Shown in pieces: positions 30,888 to 62,657 of a DNA stretch of 64,000 nt (its first letter is position 1; each line of letters begins with the position of its first letter). This DNA is from Amphiscolops sp. MND2022 (Eukaryota). The translations under genes and the position numbers were made by a program. The DNA lies in contig OZ076409.1 in assembly GCA_964187785.1 (NCBI GenBank), positions 1,116,001-1,180,000 on the forward strand. Reading direction: 5' to 3'. The notes beneath the pieces were generated by a model, which was not told the origin of the DNA, did no database searches, and saw nothing but the letters and a program-made list of their open reading frames with translations.

Positions 30888-33800
30888 TCATGCTTCAGAG
30901 AAGTTGAATCTCTTCGAGGTGCTTCCGCCGTCAGCCGCTCCTGCTGCTGAGTTCAAGTTGATCGTCTGCTGTAGAACAGTCGAGGTGGGTTTGCGGTACA
31001 AACTGAGGTTCTTGCCACCCCAAGAGGAGGAAGAGGAGGCCTTGTTTCTCTTCTTCATGCTCGCCTTGTTGGCAACAGCGCCACTCGCCTGTACAAACCA
31101 TCCATCAGAAAAACAAGCCGGGACCGGCCCAAGTCGGCGCCATATCTAAGGCTCAAAAATAGCAAAAGGCTTCAAAATGTCAAAGTATTGGTGAATTGGG
31201 GACCCTTTTATGAAAAAAAATTGAAAAAAAAGTCTCACAATGCCGAAAAAACTGAAAGGGGAGACCCTTAGTGATTTTTAAACATCCATTCTATCGCAAA
31301 ACTCAAAAAATTGAAGGGGACCCTTTGGTGGAAAAAAAATTCGAAAGTCCCACAATGCCGAAAAAATTAAAAGTCTCGGTCGGTAATGTCTGTTACGCGG
31401 AAAAAAAAGAAAAACATTTTTGGTTCAGTTCGCTAGGCTAAATGGTTCAATTTGACATAATAAAATTTTGTAGAACTTTTGGAAGAACTATTTTGGTCAT
31501 TTCAGGTGTATCGAAAAAAATTTAAATACTGACGAAAAGCCATGACTATAGCAGCAGAGTTTATTCCCTAGAAAAGCGCCGACTAAAAAACACAAGTTGC
31601 ACTTCCGGGTTACACCTCAAAATCTAAGCTCAAATGTCCCGAATGAAAATCTATATAAAATGGAGTCGAAACATTGGTTTTGCGCCACTCCAGGTCGGCC
31701 TTCGTCACAACCATTCGCTCGACTAGTAGTGGCGGCACGTCGCTCCGCTTCACTTCGCCCTTGCATTTGGGGCAGTATTTTTACTAGCGGTATTTGAACG
31801 CAGCTAAATACGATTCTCTAATTTAAGAGATTTTAACCTGGAAGAAATTAACTTTTGACCTGATACCGGACTTCCGACAACTTTTGAAAACCGGCCCAAT
31901 TTCACTGTTTCAAGCACACACGTTAGGTTTGAATAGTAAGTGTTGATTCACATGTAAGCCTTTTTGAATCTTTTCCATCTTTTGGCTCTTTTGTTTTCCC
32001 TCCCACCACCAATTTTTTCTGGGAAAATTGCGAAAATATTATAACAAAAAAACTTCAATACAAACCAGAAAGCTTCAATTTCAAATTTATTCTCAGGGTG
32101 ACAGTTTAGAATTGAGAAATGAACTTTGTTCACACTTTTACCTATGTAGTCACGTATTTTTGATGAAGAAATCAACAGCTTCCCGTTTTGAGTCATCAAT
32201 AAACATTTAATACGAACAATCATAGTCAAAATGTGCGAACAATGTTTTGTTCAAGCAAAAAACTGTTCTAATGACGTTAACTTCCCGTTATGAAAGACGG
32301 TTTTACTTTTAATTAAGCTAGTGTAAAGTTTTTATGCAAACTTGCTTTCATATTTTTGGTGGTGGGAGGTGGGGAGGAGGAGGTGAGACAGTTTGCAACA
32401 ATAATGCATTGCTTTGCAAGATCTTGCAAGATATTTTGAAGAATTACATTTTTTTTAAACCTAGGCAAGTCACCACTATCTATAGTCTGCCCTTCTACGA
32501 AAGCCTTCTCCGACTAAAAACGTGAAGAGGTACTACCTTTCTTCTGGCCTGTATGTGCGCAGAGCTAGAGATGGACGTCTTCTTGCTATTGGACGAGGAG
32601 ATGGACCAATTGGATCTGGACACGTAGAGACTTCTCCATATCTGGATCCACTGTTTCCTGGCGTCGGGCGGGGACACGCAGTATACCACGAAGACGTAGA
32701 GGCCTTGGCCCGCGACAGAGATGGTGTAGAGCACGTGGGAGAAGACTTCGAAGCTGGTGACTAGCGAGGGTCCCTTCGAGGTGTAGTTGATGATGCTGAA
32801 GCCGGAGGACACCGAAGACATCACCAGGATGGCGAACAGACCCCCACATGCCTGTACCACGCTTACTCACTTAACCTTAAATTGGCCAGGAAAGTTCTTG
32901 TTCCATCCAAAAATCGGGTGCTTCAACTTTAAACCGCAATATCTCCTGAACTATTCAAGTCCGAAAAACGATTTATACAGCGTTCGAAAGAGGAGCATCA
33001 AGGCTTTCGAATCAATTTTTAAACTGCTGGGTCCGGACTTTGCGCCAAAACTTTGCACGCATCGTGTCTCTGCTTGCTTTTCAGCATGTTTCAAAACATT
33101 CTGAGGCCGCTTTGACCCAATGTTGACACCAGTGGGTTAAAAGGGCCAGAAACAAAAACTGGGAAAATGGAAAATCTGCAGTTATTTTTTTTTGAATTTT
33201 TTGTCTCATTTTCTGAGTTTTGGAGACATCACGTCAATAATCCGTGAAAAGGCGCCGAATGCTATGCAATATTGTCTGAAAATCTTATTCAAGAGTTTGC
33301 TTTACCATACAATCAGCTGATGCGTTTAGAATTTGCAGAAAATAAATGTGCCAAATTTGGCACATTGGTCAAGTTAAGGTTAACCAACCAACACACTCAA
33401 CATTGGAACATTACAGCAGAGTAGTATAAGGAATCCCCATGCGGCTCAGTTACGATTTTCCGAGTCTTGCTACAAACATCAAAAATAGTATGTTTCAAAG
33501 CAAAAACATCAAAAGTTTGGGGTTTGTTTGATCTGAAGCGGCATTCCTCTTGCTACTCAAACATCAAAAATAAGTCCGCTCCAGATCAAGCAGACACTAA
33601 AAATAATCTGACCTTGAGGTGCATTTGACTGCACCAAAATTTTATTTTTCATTTTTCTCTATCGTGAATCGAAGAATATGTCTATGTCTGAAAAAATAAC
33701 AAATGAATTATCTATCATTCAAAGAATTTGTTCATATATATATGGATTGAAAGATGAAGCAACTTCTAATGTAAAAATGAGAAAAAACTTGAGCTTTATT

Positions 33801-36800
33801 TGCATCTGGAAACAACATTTTCAACATTCAACAGATTAGCTCAAACTTCATCGATTAATCCAAAATGAGTTACCAGATTTCTCATATTGGCAAACATTCT
33901 TTTTGGTGAACGTGGTCGAATTCTCATCCTAGGGGGTTCCCTAAGCCCAACTTTTCAGGGGCTGAAAAGTGTGGTTTCCAGGGTTACCCCGGCTAAGATG
34001 AAGCGCTTTATTCTCTTCGAAAATAACTGCTGATTGTTTAGTTTTTTTTGTTTTTTTCTCTTTTTACAATGATCACTGCCATACATGCCTGCGGTTTTAA
34101 GGTCTTAGACACAGGTCATGATATCGAGGTACATCGCCGTCGCTTTCCAACCTGAAAACAATTTTTCATTGAAAAATACCACCTCAATTACTAAATTACA
34201 CACAAGAAACCTGGAATAGTTTAAATTTTTTTTCTCATTTAGCCAGGGTCCGACTGGATTGGTATTGTTATGCTGTTCGGGCCCTCTTCAAACGTGATTG
34301 TTGCTACTGATTCGACGAATCAACTGTATGTTTTCCCATGTTTTGAAGAAACTATAATGATGATGATAATAATAGTAAGCGTGGTGTGTGGGTGTCGTTC
34401 CTTGATCTCGTTCCAGAGCAGGCGTCTGGGCTCGGAGATGTGCAGTTCGTGCTGGCTGAAGTAGAACTTGGCGGCCATGCAGTACAGAACGAGGTTCAGC
34501 AGGGCGGCCAGGGCGATCGGCAGCACGAACAGGTACAGGTGCGTGATCGAGGGAAACATGCACACCCAGTCACATCCTGGTCACACAGCACCGCACATCA
34601 CACTCCACAATCAACACAAAAAAATACATCGCTGAAAATTTATGTTTTGTCATTTTTTCGAGAAAGTCGCATAGTGCCGCCGAAAAGGAACTTTCAGTCC
34701 GCAAAACTACCTTTTCCCGAGCCGAAATGAGCCATGAAAGAGGGAGGGTACTCTTTGACCAAATTGAAAGTTTTGGAAAAAGACGCACAGAGCCGAGAAA
34801 CCAAGAAACGTATATCCGGTATATGTTATATGCGGTTTGCGTTAATCCGGCATGGGTTGTGCTATTGCCAGAGGGGACTCCTTTACAGCTTAACTGTATT
34901 ATGTGGATGGCCAAAAAGGACTTTGCCAAAATAGAAGAACTGTTGGTGGAACAATTTTGGAGAGTTCAGGTGTATCGAAAAAAACTGACAATCACTGTAC
35001 AAGTTTACATAGCCTTTATTTATTCTCGGACTAAAAAAACTACTGAGCTTATACGAAGTTTCGCATTTGAATGCAGGCGAAGCTATACAAACTTATAATT
35101 ACCACTAATTCGCGTCATCTCAATAAATTCGGCGTACGAATGCATAATTAGAACTCGCTCGTTCCATCACACGAGAATTGAAATGTTGTCGGCAGCTTGA
35201 GAAATTTAATTCTCACGCTTATAGTCACTGTCGAACAAAATATCTGAATTATTCAGTATCATGCGAAGAATTTTACTGAAAAAAAGTAGACATCTTCAGA
35301 TTTCAATCATATTCGTGCTATCGCAGAAATAATAAAAAAACAAAAAAATCGTGTATCCTGTCCAATTCACCGGTGTGGTGTGAAGTGGGGATGAAAGAGA
35401 CGAGACGGACCATGGAAGGTGCCGGTGAAGAGTTCGGGACTGACGGCCACGGGGATGAAGACGATGGCGGCGGGCAGCCCCAGCCCCACGATGAGCGCCT
35501 TGCGCATGAAGCCGTCCATGTGGGCGGGGAAGATGCCCAGCATGACCAGGTACAGGTTGAAGGCCTCGATGCTGCACCAGGTCAGGGTCACCAGGGTGAG
35601 GTACACCCGCATCACCAGCGCGAACTGACACCCCATCGAGGTGGACACGAAGAACATGGTGATGCACATGGTCAGGATGTACAGCGAGGAACACGTGCAC
35701 AGAGTCAGCAGAATCTTGGTCGGCGTCCGTTCTGATCGGATGATCCGCGCCCACAGATGATGCACATTTAACTAATTTTTAAATGTTGAAAAAAAATTGT
35801 TACCGAAACGAATTCTTTTCCATAACGTTTTCAACAAGTGTGTACGCTTGGCTCAGGGTTTTCACACCGCTAATTTGTTCCGTTAATCGCTAAACCGCTA
35901 CGAGTAATTTGAAAATCCGTTCCGCTGAAAAAAATTAATGTTTAACTTCAACTATATGTCAAAATTGAATGATAACCCAATTTAGTTTTGCAAGAAAAAC
36001 AGACTGGAAGTTTTCATACTCATGGGTAAGAGTTGGAAATTTTTTGAAATTCATGTTGAAACCCCTGTAAGATACTGCGGAAATTTTCATTTCGGATATT
36101 CTATTAACGCTAATTTTAGTCGCTAATGACATCGCTGAAAAAATCGCAAACTTGCTAACTAGCGAAGTCAAAACTCTGGCTTGGCACAGCAGTATATACA
36201 ATTTCGTCAAAACCTCTCTAGACTTGTTGGTCACTTTGCATTTTCCTTAGAGCAAATACAAGTATGGAAATTGTTCCGTAGCAACCGACGACTTCAGTCT
36301 TGAGGTAAACTGGGAACAAGACGGGAATTTCTAAATTCGGCGCTATATCTAAGGCTCAAAAAGCGCAGATTTGAAATATGCATAGGACGTTTTCATGAAA
36401 AACTCCTGTTTTCGGACCTCCGCCTCCTCCTTACAAAAACGCAAAATAGTTCGGATATAACTTCAAAAGTTCGGATATAGCGCTTAACTCCGGATATTAC
36501 GAGGGGTACTTCAAAAAATTGAAGGGGGGAGACCCTTTGGAGACAAAAAAAATCGCAGCGTGAAATCTTAAAGAAAAAAACGAGTGACTATGATAGTCGG
36601 GCTCTTTTATTGATAAAAGCGCCGACTAAAAATGTCAAGACTACTATAAAATAATATGTGTGCCATCATCCCTGTTCGCAGTTTGGGGAAGAGTCCGTAA
36701 GTAGCAAGAGTCGCAAGAAGACAAATGAGAGACAGAAGGTAAGACAGAAAATCCAGAGTAGCCAAAGAGGGGTAGAAGACGAGGGAAGATTCTTTCACAG

Positions 36801-39800
36801 GCTCCATTCTGTTGTAGTCTCTGTGCAATCTCAGAACTTCCGTTTTCAGACGACTATAAAGCGCGTCTTTGAATGACCCCTTGAAAACACTACTGCTGCT
36901 GCTGCTATGTTGGGTGTCAACGCTATTTGCACTAGAGATTCCGTCGCTAATCAACTTCATTTCGTTTCCCGCGTCAGAGAGCAAGACTACAAAAGACCTG
37001 CCGAAGTTTTCAGACAGATCGAAAACACAGCTTTGGTTGGCGGCAGCTACACTGAGAAGCTGTTTACTCAAGAGAAACTCACTGGTCGTGGTGAAATAAC
37101 ACTTCGAAGTTGAAACAGGCACTTTCAGTTTGAGCCACCCTGAGTGCGAAACGTTATCCCACGTTTGAGCAAGCAGAAGCTTGGTTAAACCCAATGACGC
37201 AACATTTCTATCAAAGGTGTAAACTCCAGAGAGCAAAGCGTCTACGCTGCAAGGTCCACTGCAGGCATTTATTGTGGCGCAGTTGATTTTATGACAAGCA
37301 TCGTGTTCTTTATCTACCACGCAGCAATTCTTGAAACCATCATTCTCGGCTGAGAAGTTCTCGACAACGTTCCAAAAACAATTGCTATCAGCCAAACCGG
37401 TCAGCGACAAAAGCAGTTCGCTGAAAAACTCGTCTTTCTGGTTCAAAACCTCGCAGCTGTTGATCATCCACTCCAGAAGTTTGAGCGACAGTTGCAGCGA
37501 ATAGGAGCAAACCTTGTTGCTGTAGCCGTAATCGAGAGTCGCGTTGCTCAGCAAGTTGAATTGCATCAAAGCATCGCGACACATTTCATTGGACAGTCTG
37601 AGATTGCTGCTGGGTTTGTGGGCGGCGGGCACGGCGGGAATTTGCTGGAGGAAGGTTGAGAATATTCTAGAATGACTCTGGCCCAACAGCGTGACTCGGT
37701 AGCGGACCTCGTTGAGAAACTGCATGTTGGGGTCCGAGAGGGCGCAAGAGTCTATCTTGATCTTGTCAGACTGGGCGGACCAAGAAGTGCGCGAACAGTC
37801 CACCTTGGGGTCATCTTCGTCCTCGCCGCCACACTGACCACAGAGCCAGTAGCCGTACGCAGTCATGCTCCTGTTCCACGCTGCCCCGTGTGGGCATCTG
37901 AACAAACAAACAAACATGCAAACGGTTGTTTTAGGTACAGAAACGTCCTGAAATATTGCATCTCCATTGCTCAAAATAGCAAATTTCAACCACAGATATC
38001 TTGAAGACTGCTAGGAATAAGGAAAACTGTCAAAAGTTTTCAAAAAGTGTTTCAAAAGTGTTTGAGTTAGAAATTGTAAATTTCGGCAAAATGTAGTCAA
38101 TTGTGCATTTTTTCTCAAATTTCAATATTTTTAATTTTGAGCTACTCAATTTTCAGGATAACTCGAATTTCAATTATACTTTCTTGAAATTAGCAAACAT
38201 CAAACCAAAATTTTTGTAAACTAGATGAAATTCTGAGAAACTTTTGCAGCAGGTAAATTCTGTATTTGTGAGTTTACGAGATAAACTGGTAGCCTAGCAC
38301 CAATTATGTCTTCATGAAAGTAAGCAGTGATGTGAATCAACCAATCAGCGCAGGGACGGAAATCAGAGTACCTGAAGACGGCGAATGCCGAGGTGGGTGC
38401 CGAGTAGATGGCCAGGGGTCCCAGCAGGCGGTGGGAGGCGTTGAAGCTGGCACACAGGTCCTGTCTGCAGGCGGGCGGCCGGTTCTCTGGCGTGTACAGG
38501 AACGCGCCCCAGTTCCAGTCGTGCCACCGCCCGTGCTCACTGTTCACATGACGTCATCAGTCAGTATTGTGCTTGCTTGCTTCTCAACCAATTCACAACA
38601 AATGCTCTTCTTCAAAACCAAATCACATTCAAAATCCAGACAAATTATGCAAATCACATGGTTATTATTTCGCACCATTTTGTGTCAAACAGAAGTGTTC
38701 GGATTAAAGTTGTGTACTCCTGTTTGTGCGAAAAGTTTTGGACAATGATTTTTCCAGAATTATCGGAAACCAGCAAAAATTCGGGGAAAATCTTTTAGGC
38801 AAAAGTTTCTTGAAATTCTTGCTAGAACCTTTTGGATGATCTTTTTTTTTCAAATTGAGAAATAGTAAGAGAGGTATCTTTGTCGGAAAGGTTTCACGTT
38901 TGCGGAGAAAAATCTCGAACATCTTAAGTCGGCGCCCCACTTTAGGCTGGAAAAGCACTGTCCATATGCCAAAAAGCTGTTTTTACGATAAGTTTGAACA
39001 AGTCGGGAACGTTCCAAGTCGGCGTCATATCCAAGGCTCAAAAATATTCAATGAACAACTATTGTGAAATTTTTCAATTATCACACAGTGCCGAAAAATA
39101 CCCGAAAGGGGTTCCCCGAAACTCGAAAAAGCTTTTTTTCTGTAATGAAAACATCAGAAAAAACTAACTTGCCTTTGAAAAAATTGGTTAAAAAAGTCGC
39201 ATATTGCCGAAAAACCCAAAGAAAGACCCTTTAGGCTCATAAAACGCTTTTTACAAACCGAAAGCCTCAAAAACAATTCAAGGGGTACCCTTTGAAAGAA
39301 TTCAAAAATTTTCCGAAAAAAGCCGCATAGTGCCAAAAAAACCCAAAGGGGGACCCTTTGGTCTTTCCTCTACTTTTGGAAGCATAACAAAATTTTGTGG
39401 TTTAGTACGAGACTCGAACCCACGCTCTCCTGCTTCTCAGACCCCAGAAAATTAGCCGGCCAAATAGTTGAACAAATGAACAAAAAAGTGGACGGAACGC
39501 GTTGAACTGACGAAAAAAACTAGCCATTGTAAGAGTCGTGCATTTTCTTCGAAAACGCCAACTTAAAATCTAAAGACTGCCGAAAAATAATCAAAGGGAC
39601 CGTTTGGACAAAAAAGACTAAAAATTTTCGAGACCAAAGAGGGAACCTTTTGGTCAATGATGTTTTATATTTTATTTTATATAATTAAAAATGTGAAAAA
39701 ACCAAGGGAGAGCCCCTTGGCTTATTCGGGAACCCTAGAGCGAAAAGTCAGTGAAATTGGACCACTTGTCAGTTAGTTAAAAGTCGGGCACACTTGTTGA

Positions 39801-41080
39801 AAAATGCGCAGACTAATGAACGTTCAAGCTATTTTTTGCTAATTTTTTCCTCGAAAAAATGTTTGCCAGTTCGAAACTATTTTCTGTTGACACAAATCCG
39901 TTGGGTTTTCCGCTTCGATTCTGTTTTCAAAAACGCCCAGGGCACACGAAATGCCGGAGCTCAAGTAGTTCTGCGGCGCCTTGTTATTGAATAGGTAGAA
40001 ATGAATCCATTTCTGCCGGTTACATTACATTTCGTCCAATACACTTTCAACCTATGCAATTTCAACCGCTCACAATTTCAACCTGTTGCATTTTCAACCG
40101 TCCGCCATTTCGACCTAAACTAATTTTGGCTTTTAGTCTTTTAGTTGAGCTATTTTTTAGTACGATCATTACTAATGAATCAAACAGCCTCAATTAATGG
40201 TAACTATTCATGAAGAAGCCAAAACGTATCAAAACTAGCGTAAGAATTCGCACAGTTGAATTTATAAATGTATGAAAGTTGGAACCACCAAAATAATTGT
40301 TAACTAATTAGGATTCATTAGCCAAAATTAGTTTAGATCGAAATGGCGGACAGTTGAAAATGCAATAGGTTGAAATTGCAGTGCATAGGATGAAATGTCC
40401 TGACACCATTTCTGCCATCCAACATTCACCCCAAGTGAAAACAAGACGCCCGCTAAGCACCGGGATACTTTCCGCCTTCTTAGTTGACTATTTTAGAAGA
40501 TTCTTCTCCAAATTCTTCTATTTTAGTTACCAGTGACTAAATGCGTCACTATGAGGAGTTTACTAGAATGAGCATATGCAGGGATGAGATTTTGAGCATA
40601 CGTCATTCTGGAGCGAGTATGCGTCAACAATAGTCAAGTAACTACAAAAATAGTCAAGTAACTAAAAATAGTCAAGTAACTATAAAAATAGTCAAGTAGT
40701 TTATGGAGATCGTGGAGATTTGGCAGAATTTGTAAAACCAAACGCAACATAGATTATGATTTTCCTGCTCCATTATATGTGGGCGGAAAATAGTACTATA
40801 GTCTTTCCATATACATGTATAAAGCAGCACAGCACTGGGCTAGGTGTTGGTTGTAGTGGATGGGGTCGGAGAAGTGCTTGGGACTCTTCTCTCCAGGGTA
40901 GTTGCGGGAGGCGTTCTTCATGCGGATGCTGCCCTGCATGGTGTAGACTATGACCACGTAGAGCAGCATGCCGGCCGCGATGAGGTTGACGCAGTTGACT
41001 GCCGCGTCTATCAGGTGGTTCCTCAGCATCTTGCTGTGGTACGACGAGTCCAGTTTCAGAAGCCCGAACTTCCACGGCAT
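30888..41080 (-). CDS. Adhesion/secretin-class (family B2-like) 7TM GPCR
   Basis: Phase-consistent exons 41080(ATG; may extend to 41103 and an exon at ~41628-41700)-40836, 38539-38372, 37897-36672, 35731-35411, 34576-34401, 32851-32537, 31088-30888. Cys-rich HRM-like segment; TM1-ICL1 YGLFPKLRTERTPTKILLTLC; TM3 YLTLVTLTWCSIEAFNLY; TM4 GLGLPAAIV; TM7 QGLYVFVVYC...RKQW. Confidence 0.85.
32875..33379. mobile_element. piggyBac-like MITE
   Basis: TTAA TSD at 32871-32874 and 33380-33383; imperfect TIR CCTTAAATTGGCCA / TGGTCAAGTTAAGG. Confidence 0.7.
40018..40407. mobile_element. Mutator-like MITE with TTTCAACC subterminal repeats
   Basis: GGT...ACC termini, inverted arms, 9-bp TSD ATTTCTGCC at 40009-40017 and 40408-40416. 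Confidence 0.8.
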
Positions 41081-44500: not shown

Positions 44501-45982
44501 CGAAAAATTATACGAAATGCACAATTTGTTATACGAATTACATGTTATACGAAGGTGCCGCCATTATTATACGAGTTATACGGAGAATCGTTTTTCAGCC
44601 AATTTGCGTCGATTTCACCATAACTAAAAGACGTTTCAGGAAATTATGAACTTTTGGTGATGAATTTCAAATGAAATGCATCCTAAAATGGTAATAGGCT
44701 ATACGGTATTCGGAGAGGGGGGTATTGCAATCCCCTTTGTTGAAGCAATTAACACTTTCTGACAGAAAAATGATCCAAAATTGTGCTCCATGCCTTTATA
44801 CGACATAAGATGGGCCAATTATACGAATATACGATATACGAAACCTTGGATAATAGAATTACACGTTATAAGAGGAACTCAGTATACGACAATACACCGA
44901 TTAGGACTTCGAATGAAACTGACTTCTACTGAACAATAGAAAAACTAAGAGCTCGAAGGGCCGGCCCCAAATAGCTGCAGAATAAATAGTCTCAGAAAGA
45001 AATGGAAAGATATTTTCAACTTTCAAGCCAAGACAGTTTTTCTCGAGTTTGGAAAAAGCACATCTCGAAGACCACCATTTGGCAAATTCTGTTGGCTAAT
45101 CCAGTTAACGGGACACTATAGTATCATCTGTAAGAGTGAAATAGAAGTCGTTTTTGCTGTTAAGTATAAAGAGAGGTCTCTAAACAGGGTTGCAATGCCT
45201 AAAACACCTGAATGTACAAAACACCATTTCCATCTGTTTAAAATGTCCCATGAACAATAAATACAACAAACACCCTTAATAATTCGGCTTCAATTTTGAA
45301 TTCGGCTCATCTCCGAAAAATACGACAGAGGCTGCTGCTAAAATCTTTTCAAATTTCAGACACAATGTGGAATCTGTTGCAAGAGCTAGGACCCTTGTGT
45401 CTCTCACTTGTGGCTCAAAGATCAACAGCACTTAAGTGGAAATGGTCAGCACTTAGCGGTCATTTCAAAATCATCTCTGAGACCATGTTGAAGCGGCAAA
45501 ACTTGAAAAACTGATCTGAATGGAGATTTCTGCACTGTTTTTGATCGCTTCAAACGTGTGTTCTATTGATGTGTTTAAATCACGACATTTAACCAGAGCC
45601 GCATGTGCGGCAAAGGACTCGGAAACGGATTAAAAGATTGAAAAACAAATCACCTACTTTATTGTCATTTGCTCATTTTTCGAATAATTCTGCCTATATT
45701 TCTAAGATGCCAGTCATACGATTTTGATGCCATTGCGCACACAGGAGCACCTTTGGGTGTAGAATGACTGTGCTAAATTTTATAAAAATCGAATGAACAG
45801 TTTTTGAGAAGCTCTGGGAGAAACTTTTGGGAGAAAAAGGTACAGTTGCATAGGTAGTCGAACATTTTCCCGACTCCTAAAAAAAACACTTTTTGCAACC
45901 CTGAGTAGCAACTTCCAGAGACCTGTCCTGAGACGGGTTCCAAACTCGGATAGACCAACAATGGGGGGGGGGTTAGCACCTG

Positions 45983-48900
45983 TCATGATTTACTGCAGGA
46001 ACCCACGTGACGCGAGTGTTCGGCCTCATTCAAGCTCTTCCGACCGCAACTGGGGCACACGAAGCGTCTGTGGGTGGCGTGCAGGTGCTGCCAGAGGGAC
46101 CTTCGGCTGATGAAGTGCTCTGTGCAGAATCTGCAGCGAAACGCGAACCCTTCCAACGACTTCTTCTCGCAGTTCCTACACAAGTACCGTCCCGTCCCCG
46201 TCCAGCTAAACTAGTTCTTAGTCGACGAACTATCTACGTGCACCAACTGTCATGGTGCTGCTTTTTGTCTTTTTTAGTCGGCGCCTTTTCCCTTAAGGAA
46301 AAAAGTCCGACTATTACAGTGGATAGTTTTTTATTCTTCAGTTCACTCTGAATGGTTCACTTTTTTGTTCATTTGTTCAACTTTTTAGCCGAGATATTTT
46401 AGTTCGGATATAACGTTTTCAAAGTTAAAGTTCGGATGTAACGGTTTCAAAGTTCGGATATAACGTTTTCATTTTTTGCCCCAAAATTTCACAAAATATG
46501 TTGAGCCTTAGATATAGCGCCGACTTTAGACGTTCCCGTCTTAATTTTCAATCCGGTCGAATTGACCAAAATAGTTCTATCTACCGTCCAAGTTCCACAG
46601 AGGGCCGAAAGGTACAAACGTACCTTTTTGGTTTCTCGCTTTATTTTGATTGAAAAGATCTGAGACCAAAGGGTCCGCTTTGGGGTTTTCAGCACTGCAA
46701 CGTTGATCTATCTAGAAGTTTTTCAAATTCTCAAAAGAGCCACATTAGGTTTCTTCGATATTTTCATTGAGAAAGCCATTCTGAACATTTGGCGGCGCTG
46801 AGAATGAGAATTTCAAGAAAAAACCATCTGAGCATATTCAAGGCTTTTTATTTGCGTCATAGGTGGTATTGAATAATTTTAAAATACCTCCTAACCGACT
46901 ACAACTTGGAGCTGTGATTCAAGTTTACAGCATTCAGTACTTCAGATCTGAATCATGCTTTTTGGAAGCATTTTTTCTGAACTATTAGCAGCAAAGATTA
47001 AACAAGCCGGCGCCACGCTAGAAGCTCAAAAAGAGCAGTCTTCCGAACATGCTGAAGGATAACAATCGAGAGACTCTCGCCAACTTCAAAGTAGCGAAAG
47101 ATACCCGAAAGATTCGAAATACACCTTTCCCTAATTCAAAATATTTCAAAAAAAGCTTAAGAAATTCTTAGAGAAGTTTTTTTCGACAAAAGTAGCCCAG
47201 TGTCAAAAACCATAAATGGGGACCATTTGGTCTCCCCTCTACCTTTGTAAACGTAGAAAAACTGTTCAGATCAACGTGGCGAGACAACAAAGGAGAGAGC
47301 TTTAGATTTATAGAATCTGCCAGTTCGCTCGTCTTCAAAACGTCATTACTATAAATTGTGTTTTCTAACGTGAGCGCCGACTGTTTTTCAAGCGAACAAA
47401 CATTTAGGGAATTTTTAGCTTTTCAATTTTCCAAGAAAGTTCAGATGCTACAAACCTTATGTTTGCGTCGTTGACTTTTTGAAAGAGCTCCACCTTTTGA
47501 GTATAAAATTCGAGTATGGTAAATATTTAACAGAAAGACGCAGCTGATATATTCATTTACTGCTATACCACTTCATTTAAAAAAGGGCCCTGCGAGGCAC
47601 AGTATTATTTCTGCTTTTAAGCTTTCATGTTCAATAATCGAAGCATAGTTTAAGCATTAGTCATTTATATAGCGCACAATTAATCACTCTACAAGTTTAC
47701 ACCGCCTTTAATTCTTCTCGGAGTCAAGAAAACAAAACTATTAAGCGTAGACGAACTTCTCAAAATGACGCCAGCGTATGAATGCATAATTCACACTCGC
47801 TCGTTCCATCGCACGAGAAACGAATTTTTGTCGGCAGCTCGAGAAATTTAAATCTCACGCTTATACTCACTGTGGAACCAAACATCTGAATTTTTCAGTA
47901 GATACTCGATATCACGACAAGAATTGTTCTGAAAAAACTTGAATTCTTGAGATTTCAAAAATACTCCTGCTATCGCAAAAGTAATAACTAAAATTCAGAG
48001 CTAAGATTTTCTTCCGAAATGCGCCGCTTAAGCGTTTGCGCGGGCGTCATAAGCGCAACAAGCGATAAGCGCGTTTTTTGGTAAAACATAATTCACTTCA
48101 CATCGTTCTTATCAAAAATAGGCCCCTCCGGGGCTCAGTACTATTTCTGCTTTAATTTTTTTTTGAAACAAAAAAAATCATTGATAAAAGAATCATATCT
48201 GGAATACCAATACACTCTTGTTTAATCATTATTTAGCGCACAATTACATGTAATCACTGTACAAGTTTACACCGCCTTTAATTCTTCTCGGAGTCAAGAA
48301 AACAAAACTATTAAGCGTAGACGAACTTCTCAAAATGACGCCAGCGTATGAATGCATAATTCACACTCGCTCGTTCCATCGCACGAGAAACGAATTTTTG
48401 TCGGCAGCTCGAGAAATTTAAATCTCACGCTTATACTCACTGTCGAACCAAACATCTGAATTTTTCAGTAGGTACTCGAAATAACGACAAAAATTGAACT
48501 GAAAAAAGTTGAATAATTCAGATTTGAATATTATTCCTGCTATCGCAGAAATAATAAAAACATGGGAAAAATGACAAAGTACATGTACATTCGAATTGGC
48601 CTAAATCTATCGACTTTGTTTAACGCGGTCATCATATTAAACTGGACAGACGGAAGACGGTACCTGCAGCCCATCTTGACGTGCTGTCCTACTGACACCG
48701 AGTATCGGTTCTCGTCCTCGCTGACCAGTGACGTCAGAGCGAAAGAGTTGGTTTTATTCAAGTCTTCTGGCGTGTACTCTTGCACCGGGGATGGACTCCT
48801 TCTCTGTATAAGACAGCCTTTGTTTCTGCTCCCACTTTCCACTTTTTTCCCTGCCCTGTCCTTACTTTTCACTCCCATGCTTCTGCTTTTCTTTGCATTT

Positions 48901-51900
48901 GAATTGCACTTCGGAGTAGTTTTTGCTGCTGCAGCAGCTTTTGAGCGGCGGAATGTTTTTTGCCCCGGGCGTCTCTCACTTTGGACCCTTTTTCGCGTCT
49001 TCGAGATAAAACCATGGGAGTCAACTTGGACATTGGGAGATTCAGATTTACAGGCATCGTTATAATCCATCTCCACGACATTGACAAAAGAGCGCGTTAC
49101 CGGCTGACCGGTTGCCGAGGAACTCACACTGGAAACAGAAATGATTTTGGGAATCGAACAGCGTGGTTGGTCTGGGTTTGCCGCAACTGGAGATGACGAA
49201 ACGTGACCTTCCTCTGATGCGTTTTCGACAGAGCCGAGGTGAGAGCACGCAGTAATATCACCATTACTACTACTACTTTTACTGTCATCGTCATCATCAG
49301 GGCAACTTCTCAAAGGCAAAGTTGTGATGCGCTGAGTGACACTTTCCACGATGTACAATTCGGGGAACAATCCGTGACCGCTTTTGACGTTCTGCATATT
49401 CATCACAGCATTGCACGACTTGTCACCAGGAATGGGTATTTTGAACAAAGACTCCGTGGAACAGCTAGAAACATGCACGCAGTAAGTATACTGGCCAGGT
49501 TGTAAAAGAACCACGAAAAGGTAACTTTGATCGGCATTTCTTGCATCATCACGGGCACGCCTCACATACCTTCCTATTTCAAAGGAGTATGACGTCATAA
49601 CACCCTCGCGAAATACTTCAAAAACGGCTTTCATGCTTTTGACGGGGTCCAAAGACCACGCGTCCACCTTGGCAGCAGAGCTGACAAAAGAGCCTTCCGA
49701 AGATTGATTAACTTTAGAGAGAGATTCGGTACATTTGGCAACTGCATTGGCGGATACTGCACTACTGTTGTGGCTACTGTTTGGCAACGACACTTCGATG
49801 ATTTCATCTTCCTCGTCAGAGCTGCTATGGAGTTGTTCTCTCGACTCCAAGCAAGTGATGTTCACTTCATCGGCACTTGGACCTGTATCTGAATTCGGAT
49901 CCATGTCTTTCCCCGCCCCATCGACAACATTCGCAGGGGGACCTTTCCCGCCATAGCTTGAACATGCATCAGCCACAGAGTCTTGGATGTTGATGCTTGA
50001 AACCCGTTTAGGTGCTGATATGAAATCAAGACGATCCGCGAATGATATGGAAGAGCTGTCTTTGATCGCGGATTCCAAAACTGACAGGAAAGGGTTAGAT
50101 GAACTGTCTTTCGTTTGCTTTTCTACGTCGTCGACGAGATTAGATATTACATGGGAATCTGAATCTATTACGAAGCGACTTTGACACAAATTGCTTTGTT
50201 CCCGTGGTGAACATTCAAGGATGGCGACATCAGAATCGGTAGACTTGGTAGAATTCGAATCAGGTACTTCGCTTGGAGACCCTTGGTTTGTATTTATTTC
50301 AGTATTGGATATGTCCAGAACTGTCACATTCTGATTTAAATTGTCCTCATTCAGAGAAACTTCCATCTGAATAACTCCAGTTTTGACATCGCCTACTGCA
50401 AGTTTACTGTCTGTGTCTATTTCGAGCATTTCAGAGTCTGTAGATTGCGTTGACTTTTCAACAAACGAAGATTCCGACTCACTCCAAAAAATCTCACGAG
50501 TTTTACTGGAAGCAGTTTGTCTATTATCGCATACCACGTTCAATCCCTCTTCAAAAACAGCCGTTTCTGCTGAAATCTTGCATTCATCTTGTACGAAGTT
50601 CGCGCTGTTGAACGTACCCATATTTGTTTGAAATTGTCGCTTTTCTGAAAGAACTTCTTCACTCAAATCAAGGACCTCAATTTTAGATTCGTTGCTATTT
50701 TTCAGATCATTTTGTGACGCGCCGGTGGCTTCCTCGCCAAGTTTGTGCAACGTTAGCTCGTGAAGCGACGAAGCTTCTTCAAATTCGGTTTTGATGCTTG
50801 GCTGAGCGATCTCTTCATTCTCTGTCTGTGTAGCACAATGATCTGTTCTGGGCAGAACGAGATTGCAATCTACCAAAACTGACTTGTTCTTCATAGTCTT
50901 CAAACACCGTTCTTCAATCACGTGTCTCAGATGAAACAGTTCTGCCCTGACGTCAACCAGTTCAGAAGGATTTCGGGTCCAATTCGAAGCCAAGAAGTCA
51001 ATTATGTTCATCTCGTCAGTGGGGTATCGCTTGGCACATATACTGGGGAGTAGGATCTCATCTTTCGGGATAGGCCGGAAACAATTGAACATGGGTTTCA
51101 AAGCTAACGAAATAAATCATGCAACCAAGCTCGAGAAACATCAAGAGATGTTGCAAGTTGATTGCATGAGAATTAACAGTCAATTTATACAAAGAGCATG
51201 AGTGTTAAAAAAGGTACAGTCAAATCGGATCTCTAGGGATTCATGGTGATGAATATTATTGCTCTTTAGAAAGTGAAGGACTAATTTATAAAACAAAATA
51301 GCGAATCGCAAAATGAATAATTGTCTGTGAATAAGATATCGTAACTATGTTGCTCATAATGAAATTATTGAGAAATTGAGAGCCTTCCCTTTTCGACAAT
51401 TGTGCTCATAGAGGACGGGCTAGATCGAAGTAGACTGGCGTTTCAGAGATCTACAGTAGTGATTCTAGAAGAAGCAACATAGCACGCGGAAAAAAAGCAA
51501 ATAAACAAATATCATTGGCTGATCAAGGCCTCACGCGCTCATTTCATTGGTCGAGAGCGATTTCCAAAACATATTTTTTTAGTTTTCTGAATTTTTGACC
51601 CGCTTACAATTTTTTGATTTATAATTCAAATAACTTTGACAGAAAAATTCTCCCAAACATTCCGAATCTGACAATATAAATTTTTCTCGAGAATATTTTG
51701 AATGATGAAAACAAAAGATTTTACTTACATAAACGAGGGCAGCGTTGAAATCAACGAAAAAAACTTTCTTGATTAGAGATTTTGACAAACCGAAAACAAA
51801 AGTAATACGAGGACTTCAGCCTGTCCTCCTATAAGGCTATTTTTCGAAACAGGTTTTCTACGTTAGGATGAGCCCATGTCAATTTCTATAGTTTCAGACT

Positions 51901-54171
51901 CAGGGTGTGTGATGACGGTGTGGAAATCTAGGACAGCCTTCCCTCTTCAATGACGGAAGACCGCAGTTTCGACTTGGTTGTTGGTTCTTTTTAAAGATCT
52001 ACAGCCACGAATGCATAGAATGGAGCTGCGAAGTAGCGCAAAACTTACTTTCGTTCTAATGAACGTGATGGAATCAGCATAGCTTTCATTTCTTCGCTCA
52101 CATAGTTTTGCAGCAAAGCGTTTCATGACTTTGGTAGCCGTGGGTCCTGCACCGCCAGTACATGCAAAGATCAAGGGGTTGAAACTCGCGTTCTCCACTT
52201 CAACAATTCTCTGCTCATATTTGAGTTTTTTTGCGATTCATAGTGGGTATAGGCTTCTCCGATTGACTTGGAACAGCTTTTTACGAGAGGATTAAAAATT
52301 TTGACATCAAAAAACTTCTCGCTGAATCTTGTTTCCCATAGTCCGTTCGCTTTAATGTCCAGTCGGGCTTGATCTTCAGTGATCGTTGTTTTGAAATCAA
52401 AGGACTCGCCTTGTAGCGGCTAAAGATGCGGTTCGATCTCAACATCGTAGCAAACGTCATCCATAATTTTGGCAAAGGTGTCAAATTGCATCAGTATGAG
52501 TTTGTTTTGAGTTGTTAAACTTCGAAATCTATCTTAATACATGTATTTTCAAAAAAGTCTAATTTTACAGCTTTTTTACCATTTCAGGATGATTTCTAAA
52601 TCAAAACGTATCAAGGGCTTCAGTTAAATCAGGGGAGTCGATTGCACATAAAATTTCTCATAAAAAACTCAATTTTGATCTAAATTTGGTTAAAAATGGC
52701 CTATCGTAACTTGGACAATTTTCATCACATAACCTTCAAATAAACATATTTGTTAACTAGATAAAAATCTATGAAACTTTCACTTTTATCATTTTTCAAA
52801 AATCGCAGTTGTTTTAGAGATATTCGATTTTGAGATTTGCCTTTTGTTGCTTTTGGAAATATCTTTATTGTACATCTTCTAATACGCAGAATCGAACTCT
52901 TCAGAAGTGCCAAGCTAATCTTAGTCCTGACGTATCCTACAACATCGGCGAATGACTTATGACAGATGTTCTGGCTGAATTTGAGCGAAAGTATTGTGAT
53001 GATTTTTGACACGAAGGGGGCGGCTCCTCCTATAGTCGCAAAGACCAGAGGGCTGAAAGCTGTTTTAACTTTGGCTGAAGTTATAACCTGACTTGAAGCG
53101 AAAATTACCGAAAATGGTTTTAAAAGTTACTCCGACTTAATATAGCAATTAGCTATAGAAAAGATAAGCGTTGCACTTCTTTGAAGCTCCCTTCTCTGCC
53201 TTAGCTTATGTTGATCGACCCGCCGTTAACTAGCTACGGAAGAGCCCTCTATAAATGTCATAGTTCACGAGGGAGGGCTGTCTTAACCTTGCCAAACCAA
53301 CCATTCATGATAATCAAGAGAAAATCGTGGTACGACAACCTATTTTATAAACTCTCCTCCACTTTCCAATGTTTCAAAAATCTAATTCAATGGAACCGCT
53401 ACAGACACTGTAATGAGACTTTTACAACTTGTAGTGTAAGAACTAGCAGCGCTTTGAGAAGTAGCGTTTCGGATGAAATGTAAAGCAAAGAACTAAACTT
53501 AAAGCTCATCCATCGAGCGATTGCCAGCTTCGTTTAATCAAATTGCCTTCAAAACTGCACAAAAAAATTTGGATGTTTTGTTCGTATCAATTTTTCTTTT
53601 AAATTTATTTGATAGAAATGATCACCACTGGTGATGCGACAACTCGGACCACGCGCCAAATTCGGACCAAATATATCAATTCAGGCCAAATTATTACAGG
53701 GATTACAGGCTAATTACAGCGGTTATTCGGTCCGAATCTGCCTCTGTCCATCAGCACTACTTCAGTGGAAGCCGCTTATATGGGACGCCTCGGGACCGGG
53801 TATTCTTGTCTACTATATCCGTTGTCTCTTATATCAGTAGTACAATAATAAAGCTTTATTTCAGCGGGTACCGAAATATGCGTGCCAATTAAGCGTTCTC
53901 TTATACGCGTGTCCCATTTAAGGGGCTTCCCCTGTACTACGAAAGCTGAGGGGGGTCTACCTTGTGAATGGGTGTCATCGTATTCTTCCTTTGCCTTCTC
54001 CTCCCCCAGTCCTTCTTTGTGGGAAGTAGAGTGCTGCCCTGTGTCAGTGAGAATCCTCACTTCTATGTCCGCGTGTTTGTGTCCCGTCTGCGAGTTGAGG
54101 ATCACTGTGTGTTGAATGCCTCCCTTCAGCAGCTCCCAAAGAGGCGCTCGTGAACAAACAGCCGCACTCAT
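45983..54171 (-). CDS. ~947 aa protein with a long acidic/Ser-rich region and C-terminal C2H2-type zinc fingers
   Basis: Phase-consistent exons 54171-53961, 51103-48664, 46175-45983. The junction gives GCR/NCEK; the last exon has CRFCTEHFISRRSLWQHLHATH and CPSCGRKSLNEAEHSRHVGSC. Confidence 0.75.
51947..53060 (-). mobile_element. Two fragments of a non-LTR retrotransposon C-terminus (restriction-like endonuclease type)
   Basis: FNPLIFACTGGAG...FIRTKVSFALLRSSILCIRG, and a second degenerate copy (VRTKISLALLKSSILRIR); frameshifted. Confidence 0.7.
53763..53934. mobile_element. Tc1/mariner-type MITE
   Basis: Imperfect TIR CAGTGGAAGCCGCTTATATGGGAC / GTCCCATTTAAGGGGCTTCCCCTG followed by TA. Confidence 0.65.
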
Positions 54172-56946: not shown

Positions 56947-59469
56947 TTAGAGTATGCAAGTGTCAGTGGGTGGTTTTTCTAAAGGGGGCAATGGATCATC
57001 GAAGGTGTCTTCAAAGGTTCCCACAACCAAACGGGCCGTCACGGGAGCACCTCCTGCTTTTAGGTCATGAGCGGGGGTCGAGGTAGCTGACCCTGACCCA
57101 TCGGCGTCGCCGTCGTCGTTCAGCTGATACGGCTGCCCATTGTAGGACGACGATGAACTGCCCAAATGCACACTTCTAGAGGCATGGTTGTGATGGAACC
57201 GGTCATGCAGTTTCAGAACAGTCGCACTCATCTCTTGAGTAATGACGTCATTTGAGAGCATGTTTGCCATAGTTTCGCCAAACCCGGAGGCCGTGTTACT
57301 CAGAGAGGCCGCCAGTGATAGAGCAGAGTGCTGAGACACTACTTGATTGCCGTACGAGGACGTTTGGGTGAGATACATGCTAGCTGTTTCGTCTGAGGTT
57401 GCATTCACTTGATACAACGGGCCTGTTTTTGAGGCGATGCCTTTTCCCTTCAGAGGTACGTCTGTTTGCGCCCCCTGTTGCGATATAGGATGATTGTGAG
57501 GATGAATGATCGATCCCATGTTTTGGTGTTCAAATATGCTCTCTTTGATCACAGGCGGAATCGACAACGGCTGCAGAAACATGGAAGAGGTCTGCATCGA
57601 ATGAAGTATCCCAGTATGCTCTACGTTCCGCACACTTATCATCATACTGGCGTCTTTTCGCACCTGGCCTTTCAAGTTCGCCAAAAAGATTTCTGACGCT
57701 TGCCCGGGTTTCCAATCAGGATTGGTCAGTGCAAAATTCACCAGAGACAATTCCGTCTTTCCATCTTCAGATTGCATCGCTTGAGAAGGCAACGCCGCTC
57801 TTTCCTTCTCTTCAGCATCGCCAGAGGCTTTTCCATTGGCCATGACGTCATCTTCGTCCATCCAATGAGGATTTCCATGTTTATGCACATCCAGTTGTGC
57901 AAACGAACACACATCTCCAACTCCAGCAACGTCAATACTGAAGTTTCGCAGGAAATCCACCACCTCCAAACTTTTGTTGCGAAACGAGAAAATCAGGATC
58001 AAAGGGGTAATCAATGGACTCACCAACTCTTCGACGAAGAAAGTGACTTTGAGCTGGAAAAACTTGGAGAACTCATTGCGGACAGTTGATGTATGAGCTT
58101 TTGTGCGCCAGGTGGCAGGCATGTAGTGAATATGAGCCAAGACGCTCTTAAGGAGCAATTCAGGACAGAAAATAAAGTTTTCTTCGGGGATAAATACACG
58201 CGATAGTGCAGTCAACACTCCAGTGACCGTGAGAATAGTTATGACGTGTTCTACCTGAAGAACATCTTCGTCAATGACAGTCAACACCAAAATGACAGCA
58301 CAGATAGAACCGGAAAAGAAAGCGACATTGTGAGCGATGATTGAGGCGAAAGTGGACATGAAGCAGTTGAGGTACATACAAGCAGGTTTGTAGGCACGTG
58401 ACAATCGGGCACTGAACTCATGCTCAACTTCGTTGTAATGTCTGAGGTATAGGCGACTAAACAAAGACCACTTTCTCATTCCCAAACTGGACGGGTCGCG
58501 TTTGATGAGGTCGGCATAGCTAAAGAAAGATAGCAACAGTTGGTAGAAAAAAATGAAAGGTGACAATGCTAAATTGGCGAGACCAACGAGAAGAATCCTA
58601 TTTGACATCTCATTTGCCAGTTGATTGCGTGCCCCTTTTCTTTTGAATACTTCTCGTAAACTCCAATTATTAGAGAATGGAGCCCAAGGGCCCCAAAATA
58701 AGATGAAACCAAAATTGAACTTGAGACCTTGTGATAGAAAAGTGTAATCACCGAAGAAGGGTACGTAAAACTTCACGGGTAAAATTTCCTTATTGATTAG
58801 AGCTATTTCATAATTTTTAAAACGTAATATTCGAGAATATATGTCCAAAGATGTCAACTCTCGTTTATGGATACACATTTGCTGGTCGTATTGGACTTTT
58901 TTCAGTCGGTCAAGAACTTCAAACCAGGTGTAATTTTCAAGCTCTCTACTGGGTATAACCAATGCAGTTTCATAGAACATTCTGGTTTCCCAAAACCGCG
59001 TAAGAACAATTCCAGCTCTTGCGCAACGGAAGATCCAGAAAATTAAGGCCATAAGAAACAAAATTTGCATGGATAATGAAGTATCTGCTAAGCATTGATC
59101 CAAGGGAAGCACGACATCTTGTAACTTAACCTTGGGAGGCCAAGGTATTCGAATTGAAGAGTTGCCAAGTATAGGATAATCTTCAGTATCTCCGAACAAT
59201 ACAGGGTAATCAATACATTGTAGTAGTATGACTGATAATAATATAACGAAAATGAACTGACACAAGGTGAAAAGTTCAGTCGTCGCAATACATAAAAACC
59301 CATTTCGCTGATGATAGAGGTATACTCGACGAAAGAAATCATCAAGATTTTCAACATGATGCCACGACTTCGCAATATCTGCAAAATAGGTCATATGGTC
59401 GTCACCAGGTAGAGCCCCGGTGGTTTCATCCTCAGGGTAAGTGTCCAGCCGCTGATACTTGGTTCCCAT
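56947..59469 (-). CDS. ATG9: Autophagy-related protein 9 (lipid scramblase), intronless, 840 aa
   Basis: Hallmark motifs WHHVENLDDFFRRVYLYHQRNGFLCI, QMCIHKRELTSLDIYSRILRFKNY, VLAHIHYMP, FLRNFSIDVAGVGDVCSFAQLDV, DGKTELSLVNF. Confidence 0.97.
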   Translation of the reverse strand: MGTKYQRLDTYPEDETTGALPGDDHMTYFADIAKSWHHVENLDDFFRRVYLYHQRNGFLCIATTELFTLCQFIFVILLSVILLQCIDYPVLFGDTEDYPILGNSSIRIPWPPKVKLQDVVLPLDQCLADTSLSMQILFLMALIFWIFRCARAGIVLTRFWETRMFYETALVIPSRELENYTWFEVLDRLKKVQYDQQMCIHKRELTSLDIYSRILRFKNYEIALINKEILPVKFYVPFFGDYTFLSQGLKFNFGFILFWGPWAPFSNNWSLREVFKRKGARNQLANEMSNRILLVGLANLALSPFIFFYQLLLSFFSYADLIKRDPSSLGMRKWSLFSRLYLRHYNEVEHEFSARLSRAYKPACMYLNCFMSTFASIIAHNVAFFSGSICAVILVLTVIDEDVLQVEHVITILTVTGVLTALSRVFIPEENFIFCPELLLKSVLAHIHYMPATWRTKAHTSTVRNEFSKFFQLKVTFFVEELVSPLITPLILIFSFRNKSLEVVDFLRNFSIDVAGVGDVCSFAQLDVHKHGNPHWMDEDDVMANGKASGDAEEKERAALPSQAMQSEDGKTELSLVNFALTNPDWKPGQASEIFLANLKGQVRKDASMMISVRNVEHTGILHSMQTSSMFLQPLSIPPVIKESIFEHQNMGSIIHPHNHPISQQGAQTDVPLKGKGIASKTGPLYQVNATSDETASMYLTQTSSYGNQVVSQHSALSLAASLSNTASGFGETMANMLSNDVITQEMSATVLKLHDRFHHNHASRSVHLGSSSSSYNGQPYQLNDDGDADGSGSATSTPAHDLKAGGAPVTARLVVGTFEDTFDDPLPPLEKPPTDTCIL

Positions 59470-59666
59470 TTCGAAGAGGTATCAATGCAAACAATCACAT
59501 CCCCATTGCAATCTGAAACAGAACTATAGTTAAGAAGAAGAGATGTATTAACCTTCGGGATGTGGCAGTACAAATGACTTTCTATCATTGATTCCAGAAC
59601 AAAGTAAATAGTATTTAAAAAATTGACACAGAAGAAAGGCAAGTGAGGATTGCAGAGTTATAATAA

Positions 59667-61887: not shown

Positions 61888-62173
61888 TTAGTCACTCCAA
61901 TTAGCTCTCCGGGTTAACTCTTCTTCTGCCCTCTCTAACCCGAATGTGTCGTATATGTTTCTTGCATTCTGGTTACTCACAATAAGATACGCCCTATGGA
62001 TTGTTTTGAAGTGTTCCTCACATCCGCCAGCATCAGGATGAGTTAAGGCAGCTAATTTTTTGTAATTACGCTTGATATCCTCAACGTCTGCGTCATCCTT
62101 TACGAGAAGAAATCTCATACGGTGTGAACGGACGTTGGATGAGTTTTTTTTTGTTTCAGCTCCCTAATAATTT
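61888..62173 (-). pseudogene. 3' fragment of a second J-domain gene (HPD intact)
   Basis: PFTPYEI, then a 1-nt shift, then LLVKDDADVEDIKRNYKKLAALTHPDAGG...HRAYLIVSNQNARNIYD. Confidence 0.7.
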
Positions 62174-62657
62174 TTTCCCAAAACAGCGTAAGAACAATTC
62201 CAGCTCTTGCGCAACGGAAGATCCAGAAAATTAAGGCCATAAGAAACAAAATTTGCATGGATAATGAAGTATCTGCTAAGCATTGATCCAAGGGAAGCAC
62301 GACATCTTGTAACTTAACCTTGGGAGGCCAAGGTATTCGAATTGAAGAGTTGCCAAGTATAGGATAATTTTCAGTATCTCCGAACAATACAGGGTAATCA
62401 ATACATTGTAGTAGTATGACTGATAATAATATAACGAAAATGAACTGACACAAGGTGAAAAGTTCAGTCGTCGCAATACATAAAAACCCATTTCGCTGAT
62501 GATAGAGGTATACTCGACGAAAGAAATCATCAAGATTTTCAACATGATGCCACGACTTCGCAATATCTGCAAAATAGGTCATATGGTCGTCACCAGGTAG
62601 AGCCCCGGTGGTTTCATCCTCAGGGTAAGTGTCCAGCCGCTGATACTTGGTTCCCAT
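62174..62657 (-). pseudogene. ATG9: Truncated 5' duplicate of ATG9 (first ~160 codons) fused to J-domain gene sequence
   Basis: Nearly identical to 58986-59469; diverges after ...VLTLFWE. Confidence 0.9.

Follow-up and report, generated by a model that had tools for sequence, protein, structure and literature searches.

Paired intron ends are a feature of the nonconventional introns of euglenids, in which the pairing juxtaposes the exons and GT-AG borders are absent, and of yeast introns whose ends are bridged by 'zipper' stems formed between the 5' splice site and the branch point. Here we describe an intron with complementary ends, intron 1 of a C2H2 zinc-finger gene, in a 64,000-nucleotide (nt) stretch of the Amphiscolops sp. 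MND2022 genome (GenBank assembly GCA_964187785.1, contig OZ076409.1, positions 1,116,001 to 1,180,000 of the forward strand); we refer to this whole stretch as the window and count positions from its first letter. The locus touches on two open questions, the origin of new introns and the recognition of introns whose signals are poor, and published systems bear on both. In zebrafish, AC and GT repeats that complement each other from opposite ends of an intron force the splice sites to pair without U2AF2, according to the available part of Lin et al. 2016 (PMC4691745). The accessible portion of Gozashti 2022 (PMC9860276) lists copepods among introner hosts and describes families in which the element brings the 5' site and the duplication supplies the 3' AG, and transposon-derived introns with terminal inverted repeats (TIRs) are described for Fritillaria borealis in the accessible sections of Soo et al. 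(bioRxiv 10.1101/2025.08.15.670264). Robertson 2017 (PMC5714493) found AG|GGA and AG|GAA donors in the copepod Eurytemora affinis together with a burst of intron gain, with no nearby consensus sequence reported and end pairing not mentioned.

Intron 1 resembles introners, as portrayed in the available parts of those sources, in that its inverted repeat lies exactly at the termini, the donor is within the end of the putative element, the AG is just past the other end, and the reading frame is restored. Unlike the introners in those same parts, its ends are unique and belong to no multi-copy family, its target duplication is only putative, and it is large and composite rather than small and uniform. 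It also differs in its canonical GT-AG borders from most Fritillaria introns as the accessible sections present them. With the teleost (AC)m-(GT)n introns, in so far as the available text covers them, and the yeast zipper introns it shares complementary segments at opposite ends and a weak or missing pyrimidine tract, but its arms are unique sequence of the CCGTC/GGAC type and the helix includes the 5' splice site. The end pairing recalls the euglenid nonconventional introns, although the canonical borders and the unrelated lineage differ, and assignment to a class with non-GT/AG borders, be it that of Fritillaria or of euglenids, was rejected since intron 1 has both GT and AG. The likeness to Eurytemora affinis lies in a neighbouring receptor gene, which has the same AG|GGA and AG|GAA donor type; intron 1, unlike the GA/GG-donor introns of that copepod, has a canonical donor, CAG|GTACCG.

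The zinc-finger gene, which is lineage-restricted, has at least three exons, with the large exon split from the C2H2 exon by intron 1. Its parts, together with the elements of the repeat, are as follows, P0003 being a homologous protein described below.

53961..54171, minus strand: exon 0, with start codon at 54171-54169 and a putative 3' boundary CACAAG|GTAGAC
51104..53960, minus strand: intron 0, GT..AG, about 2857 nt, boundary putative
48664..51103, minus strand: exon 1 (the large exon), with 3' end ...GTC AAG ATG GGC TGC AG
46176..48663, minus strand: intron 1, GT..AG, 2488 nt, junction supported by P0003
45983..46175, minus strand: exon 2, the C2H2 zinc-finger tail, with a split codon, 63 codons (46174-45986) and the stop (45983-45985)
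48642..48663, minus strand: 5' arm GTACCGTCTTCCGTCTGTCCAG, the first 22 nt of intron 1, containing the GT donor
46184..46205, minus strand: 3' arm CTGGACGGGGACGGGACGGTAC, G-rich, at intron positions -30 to -9
46176..46183, minus strand: spacer TTGTGTAG, 8 nt, carrying the acceptor AG

The sequence-only reading had proposed an intron joining the large exon to the zinc-finger exon, and the sequence of P0003 across the joint agrees with this. P0003, a protein of 849 amino acids (aa) encoded on a contig of 3059 nt from a related organism, was found with the zinc-finger exon as query and is the sole homologue of the large exon in two protein libraries (1.84 billion representatives and a word-indexed library). 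By tblastn, its residues 2-73 match 54165-53965 in exon 0 at 50% identity, residues 59-785 align to 51050-48663 at 39%, and residues 784-848 match exon 2 (window 46180-45986) at 72%; the region around the 3' boundary of exon 0 is poorly conserved, and P0003 does not pin that boundary. Exon 1 ends with GGCTGCAG immediately before the 5' arm, exon 2 begins with GAACTGC directly after the acceptor, and P0003 is continuous across the 48664|46175 joint (...HVKMGCRNCEKKSL... / KMGCRNCEKKSL / ...SIGQHVKMGCRNCEKKSLRGF... / ...SIGQHVKMGCRNCEKKSLRGFAFRCRLC...) with zero residues gained or lost. Rather than pointing to another donor for the zinc-finger exon, which had been named as a finding that would count against the proposal, P0003 thus matches exactly this join. 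The borders are CAG|GTACCG ... TGTAG|G and the join is in frame (TGC AG|G AAC, encoding C-R-N), such that excision of intron 1 restores an uninterrupted coding sequence, as in P0003.

Within a fast-evolving protein, exon 2 encodes the most strongly conserved part, which argues that this organism, too, removes the 2488 nt to make the protein. A 41-codon read-through tail of the exon 1 open reading frame (ORF) has no counterpart in P0003. That upstream frame had been given as 853 aa, but is 850 aa from the first ATG and 858 aa from stop to stop. P0003 is most simply taken to be a transcript, since its 849-codon frame is complete within a 3-kb contig and yet covers two intron positions of an 8-kb locus, and homology at the exact junction supports intron 1 as a genuine spliceosomal GT-AG intron. 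The U12-type 5' splice site is of the RTATCCTT type and the intron 1 donor, GTACCGTC, does not fit it, so that a U12-type intron was rejected. The CRNC motif, said to be rebuilt by the joined exons, does occur in P0003 as well, but it exists without splicing because the last codons of the intron, TTG TGT AG|G, also give L-C-R; the canonical finger begins downstream of it, at FRCRFC. Pfam matches of exon 2 to zf-C2H2, zf-C2H2_4 and zf-Di19 are all below the cut-offs. One distant paralogue of exon 2 is present in the genome (35% identity), and a genome search for paralogues of the large exon found none.

The two arms pair in blocks of 8, 6 and 6 bp, of which 19 pairs are Watson-Crick and one, in the middle block, is G-U; one strand bulges by UU and the opposite strand by GG. 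The strong end helix of about 20 bp noticed in the sequence-only reading was therefore recovered, although with these blocks rather than blocks of 8, 5 and 6, and its end does lie 8 nt from the 3' splice junction, at the spacer (46183..46176). Co-folding of the two ends yields duplex energies of -31.5 kcal/mol with arms of 22 and 30 nt, -35.7 kcal/mol with arms of 30 and 40 nt, and -42.1 kcal/mol with 45-nt arms plus 5 exon nt, the last value being reached because four more pairs, two of them G-U, extend into exon 1 and leave 4 nt before the 3' splice site. The helix accordingly spans exon position -4 to intron +22/+29 and intron -30 to -9/-5, with the 5' splice site included, and so has the predicted geometry of covering both that site and the zone in which other introns carry a T-rich tract.

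Pairing of this strength is rare in every comparison made. None of 6000 random pairs at the same distance reached -30 kcal/mol (minimum -29.8), three of 3000 GC-matched pairs did so, and no mismatched combination of 5' and 3' ends from 33 introns reached -42.1 (0/1056; minimum -36.3). Dinucleotide shuffling gave no case as good as the intron 1 end pairing (0/1000; z-score -4.6). At the DNA level, alignment of one arm with the reverse complement of the other has 21 matches in 27 aligned columns, a result equalled by 0/500 shuffles, and defines an imperfect inverted repeat of 22-25 nt with arms CAGGTACCGTCTTCCGT--CTGTCCAG and CAAGTACCGTC--CCGTCCCCGTCCAG. Over the outermost 8 bp the match is perfect (GTACCGTC/GACGGTAC), and it stops about 25 nt inward; the arms are composed of short tandem units, CCGTC on one side and GGAC/GGGAC on the other. 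Both are single-copy in the 1.07-Gb genome, and Rfam has zero matches within 45800-48900.

Inverted repeats as such are common in the window, with 453 pairs on the plus and 440 on the minus strand at -28 or below within 8 kb, and pairs at -30 or below that are bounded by GT..AG are not enriched (31 versus an average of 48.3 across the 60 dinucleotide combinations tallied, with GT-AG among them). Scanning the window for GT..AG-bounded inverted repeats was therefore unsuitable as a means of finding introns of this kind, and the intron 1 repeat is remarkable only because it is placed on the ends of an independently supported intron. The G runs of the 3' arm (GG, GGGG, GGG, GG) could in principle form a two-layer G-quadruplex in RNA.

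The explanation that we favour, tentatively and with a probability of about 45%, is that the repeat represents the terminal inverted repeats of a DNA insertion that made intron 1, with an origin like that of an introner or of a cut-and-paste transposon. The repeat lies exactly on the intron termini, its outer 8 bp are perfect and it has no inward extension, which is the layout of transposon ends. We infer an order of events in which a piece of DNA with terminal inverted repeats was inserted and created the intron, the first bases of the left repeat supplying the GT donor and the 8-nt spacer past the right repeat the acceptor AG, perhaps as part of a decayed target-site copy. Splicing would take the insert out exactly and restore the reading frame, and later transposon insertions would have enlarged the interior. 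The last five nt of the spacer, TGTAG, match the exon end, TGCAG, at 4/5 positions, a possible target-site duplication; read as an 8-bp duplication, the match is 4/8.

The interior of intron 1 contains nested interspersed repeats at intron positions of about 86-1094, 2122-2163 and 2323-2402, with 92-96% identity to other copies. A 300-nt direct repeat within the intron (47676-47975 and 48246-48545; 94% identity, 570-nt spacing) is part of an interspersed repeat that is present many times in the genome, and a separate 215-nt element at intron positions 336-549 has copies of about 95% identity on most chromosomes. The divergence of the nested repeats and the 300-nt duplication imply that intron 1 is not brand new, and the nested repeats show that it tolerates insertions.

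Several observations weigh against an insertion origin. Searches of the 1.07-Gb genome with a 22-nt end, allowing up to three mismatches, returned no relative and two unrelated hits, and the terminal 111 and 121 nt match only themselves in the genome, although such ungapped and BLAST-type searches could miss old, decayed copies of the ends. A 15-nt core gave 88 matches against 164 for the control, and its recurrent variant is internal to an unrelated repeat. The middle 1 kb of the intron is mostly single-copy. The target-site duplication is weak, in that 71/500 shuffles gave a direct-repeat alignment as good and the AG is in any case fixed by splicing. Both substitutions between the arms are compatible with G-U pairing, a slight lean towards selection on the RNA (2/2, p = 0.25), and the 3' end has almost no pyrimidine tract, such that finding the acceptor may need something else.

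Three more specific origins were rejected. Tandem duplication, with the 3' intron end copied from the exon end, is unsupported by the same direct-repeat alignment. Treating the ends as those of a hAT element (CAG.../...TTG, 8-bp duplication) fails because by inspection the flanks agree at 1/8 positions and an empty site would break the frame. A family in common with intron D of the neighbouring receptor gene, which has a similar GTCCGTCTCG start, is unsupported, with no further copies in the window.

The same genome offers an example of how ends of this kind could arise. A Cpn60_TCP1 reading frame contains a hAT-like element of 5.7 kb (L052, G000:C3:83590200-83597800, at about 465-6162 of that segment), with terminal repeats CA[A/G]GGTGGCCAGTT and an 8-bp target duplication GATAAAGG/GACAAAGG. 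Its GC..AG ends would restore the frame exactly if the element were spliced, although the splicing is putative and the gene copy could be dead. The element end has 61 copies in the genome compared with two control matches. This element follows the introner pattern of Gozashti 2022 and, for Fritillaria, of Soo et al., and serves as a same-genome example of where such ends can come from.

The hAT-like element is also one of a small number of cases of end pairing beyond composition, which we defined as no more than 22 of 1000 shuffles being as good. The sample comprised 54 introns: eight from the window's zinc-finger and receptor genes, 25 from chaperonin genes and 21 from myosin genes. Junctions of the chaperonin and myosin introns were self-called from Pfam exon matches, without RNA support; rows scoring below 5 were dropped (2/27 chaperonin and 1/22 myosin), and two myosin pairs had no candidate. 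Five of the 54 introns, namely intron 1, receptor intron E and three chaperonin introns including the hAT-like element, have end pairing beyond composition, with intron 1 the most extreme. None of the 21 myosin introns is among them (minimum z-score -1.28), and the 25 chaperonin introns do not differ from mismatched pairs (Mann-Whitney p = 0.22); end helices as a general feature were therefore rejected for conserved genes. In the window's two fast-evolving genes, 2/8 introns qualify. The eight window introns have a raw mean of -24.1 versus -14.6 (p = 7e-5), a difference that is largely compositional, and after dinucleotide shuffling only zinc-finger intron 1 and receptor intron E stand out among them; intron 0 of the zinc-finger gene has no end pairing beyond chance (-18.5 kcal/mol, z-score -0.40, 312/1000 shuffles as good). 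End pairing in only a minority of the introns is more in line with young introns made by insertion than with a splicing device of general use. GC donors ranked top in 4/25 of the chaperonin introns (loci L047-L055), which is high for an animal, the junctions being self-called.

The RNA around the two ends was considered next to these DNA-level arguments, for which two further features are needed.

46206..46224, minus strand: candidate branch region GACTAAG, with the putative branch A at -43
48668..48689, minus strand: exon-1 hairpin partner, exon positions -26 to -5, pairing locally with the 5' arm

The acceptor region is, as had been noticed from the sequence, G-rich and lacking in a polypyrimidine tract: positions -25..-4 are 36% pyrimidine, the second lowest value among 33 introns, and 50% G, the highest. 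The branch-point consensus is yUnAy, and the sole site resembling it by inspection lies about 43 nt upstream of the acceptor. Two AGs follow this candidate, at -37/-36 and at -32/-31, the second (TTTAG) offering another acceptor in frame, 30 nt upstream of the one used; neither serves in the conserved form of the protein. In a fold of the whole pre-mRNA segment, the structure with the end helix enforced is iso-energetic with the free structure (-687.9 versus -688.1 kcal/mol; a free-energy difference, ddG, of +0.2). The free fold adopts a local hairpin (48634-48703, minus strand) in which the last 26 nt of exon 1 and the first 20 nt of the intron enclose the donor, with an energy of -21.7 kcal/mol (z-score -2.15; 5/200 shuffles as good); its exon side codes for the conserved GQHVKMG.

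On this folding model, the local hairpin would form before the end helix during transcription, and U1 could bind first, the 3' arm being made about 2.4 kb after the 5' splice site. The proposal that the helix implies helicase-dependent or otherwise altered recognition is weakened because the end helix is iso-energetic, because its 3' arm is made late, and because end pairing is not general. The helix may instead be a DNA-level relic rather than a recognition device. Under an insertion origin, it would be a by-product that forms only after the whole intron is transcribed and competes with the local hairpin, and we infer that it would be unnecessary for splicing, yet it could help to bring the junctions together.

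A doubtful alternative to an insertion origin, and the one that survives best, is that the repeat is a selected bridging helix, in which pairing of the ends juxtaposes the splice junctions of a long, repeat-filled intron that has no pyrimidine tract. In this role it would take over some of the recognition that depends on U2AF and direct the spliceosome beyond the two nearer AGs to the correct one, and the donor could be kept in the local exon-intron hairpin up to the time at which the 3' arm is made. The pairing is strong throughout the range of arms folded and places the paired donor at 8-9 nt from the acceptor; G content in the 3' region is the highest of the 33 introns and pyrimidine content there the second lowest; and the conserved protein form uses the distal AG, although both nearer AGs stand between the candidate branch site and the 3' arm. 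Both arm substitutions yield G-U rather than A-C, the ends are single-copy, as expected of a locus-specific element, and the 5' arm has a second, local partner with which the end helix is iso-energetic in the full fold. Set against these points, the 5' splice site itself is buried within the helix (-4 to +22), and to our knowledge the known helper stems leave the splice sites free. U1 can presumably bind during the approximately 2.4 kb of transcription before the partner exists, the G-richness of the 3' arm simply complements a C/T-rich 5' arm, helices of this kind are not in general use among the 46 introns of conserved genes, and the end helix is not favoured in the full-length fold. A precedent exists in the AC/GT introns of zebrafish, in the part of that account that is available (PMC4691745).

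A stronger form of the same idea, which we think unlikely, would have a working, locus-specific helix that joins the donor region to the final 30 nt of the intron, sets the acceptor 8 nt from the donor, replaces the pyrimidine tract and forces use of the distal AG, with the local hairpin as the other state of a two-state switch. It would amount to splice-site pairing assisted by structure in a genome of arthropod-like character.

It is likewise improbable that the repeat is a neutral, functionless inverted repeat of non-transposon origin, such as filler DNA, a small inverted duplication at a repaired break, or the result of CCGTC/GACGG slippage. The arms are indeed made of slippage-prone short tandem units, neither a family nor a clear target duplication was found, and the window is full of inverted repeats. 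Such an origin would nonetheless have to coincide to the base with both intron termini and to leave outer 8 bp that are perfect, unlike the interior, and none of the 1000 shuffles or 1056 mismatched pairs reaches the intron 1 value.

That intron 1 is not spliced, and is instead a gene-breaking insertion that leaves an 850-aa read-through product ending at 48540 and a dead remnant of the zinc-finger ORF, is highly improbable: there is a public ORF-style call of exactly 850 aa (P0001) and P0003 could in principle stem from an intron-less gene, but the 63-codon exon is intact and the most conserved (72% versus 39%) despite an intron old enough to hold nested repeats, donor GT and acceptor AG are both present and keep the frame, nothing in P0003 corresponds to the read-through tail, and P0003 also spans a second intron position on its transcript-like contig.

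The locus combines a supported junction, a perfect 8-bp terminal repeat, a scant pyrimidine tract and a donor region for which two folds compete. GA and GG donors occur in the same genome, as does an in-frame transposon with splice-like ends. If the helix is a relic, intron 1 would be an animal example of an insertion-made intron whose source family has vanished. If it is functional, structure-dependent splice-site pairing would extend beyond yeast and fish, and would offer a possible clue to weak-site recognition in a genome that already accepts GA and GG donors. We regard intron 1 as a good single-locus lead, not a discovery, and as a well-defined test locus.

The neighbouring receptor gene was modelled with a transcript-like homologue, P0004 (874 aa), giving six introns, two of them with non-canonical donors that P0004 confirms.

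30891-41080, minus strand: secretin-family (PF00002) receptor gene, seven exons
36671-35732, minus strand: receptor GG-AG intron, donor AG|GGA
34400-32852, minus strand: receptor GA-AG intron (intron E), donor AG|GAA, end-pairing z-score -2.4

Intron E has a perfect 11-bp complementarity between ACCACGCTTAC at +16..+26 and GTAAGCGTGGT, which ends 4 nt before the acceptor, and no target duplication is evident in it. Intron D (35410-34577, minus strand) is rich in CA at its 5' end and in GT at its 3' end, which recalls the AC/GT bridging introns of fish; its pairing (-29.1 kcal/mol, z-score -0.5) is compositional. The host lineage appears to have many recent intron gains. The two non-canonical receptor donors, being of the type described in Eurytemora affinis alongside a burst of intron gain, set intron 1 in a context of modified donor recognition and count in favour of an insertion origin.

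Other features of the window include a single-exon ATG9 gene (844 aa; 56947-59481, minus strand), for which an atlas search pointed to arthropods, and, about 3 kb upstream of it, a partial ATG9 duplicate comprising the first ~180 codons (62115-62669, minus strand). Each is followed by the same 107-aa ORF, in what looks like a local segmental duplication. In positions 1-9200 a unit of about 4.6 kb is duplicated in tandem, with ORFs repeated at 724/5349, 1471/6109 and 2609/7247, and in positions 17600-21600 a 1.8-kb unit occurs three times, the copies carrying identical 104-aa ORFs (17671, 19472 and 21272).

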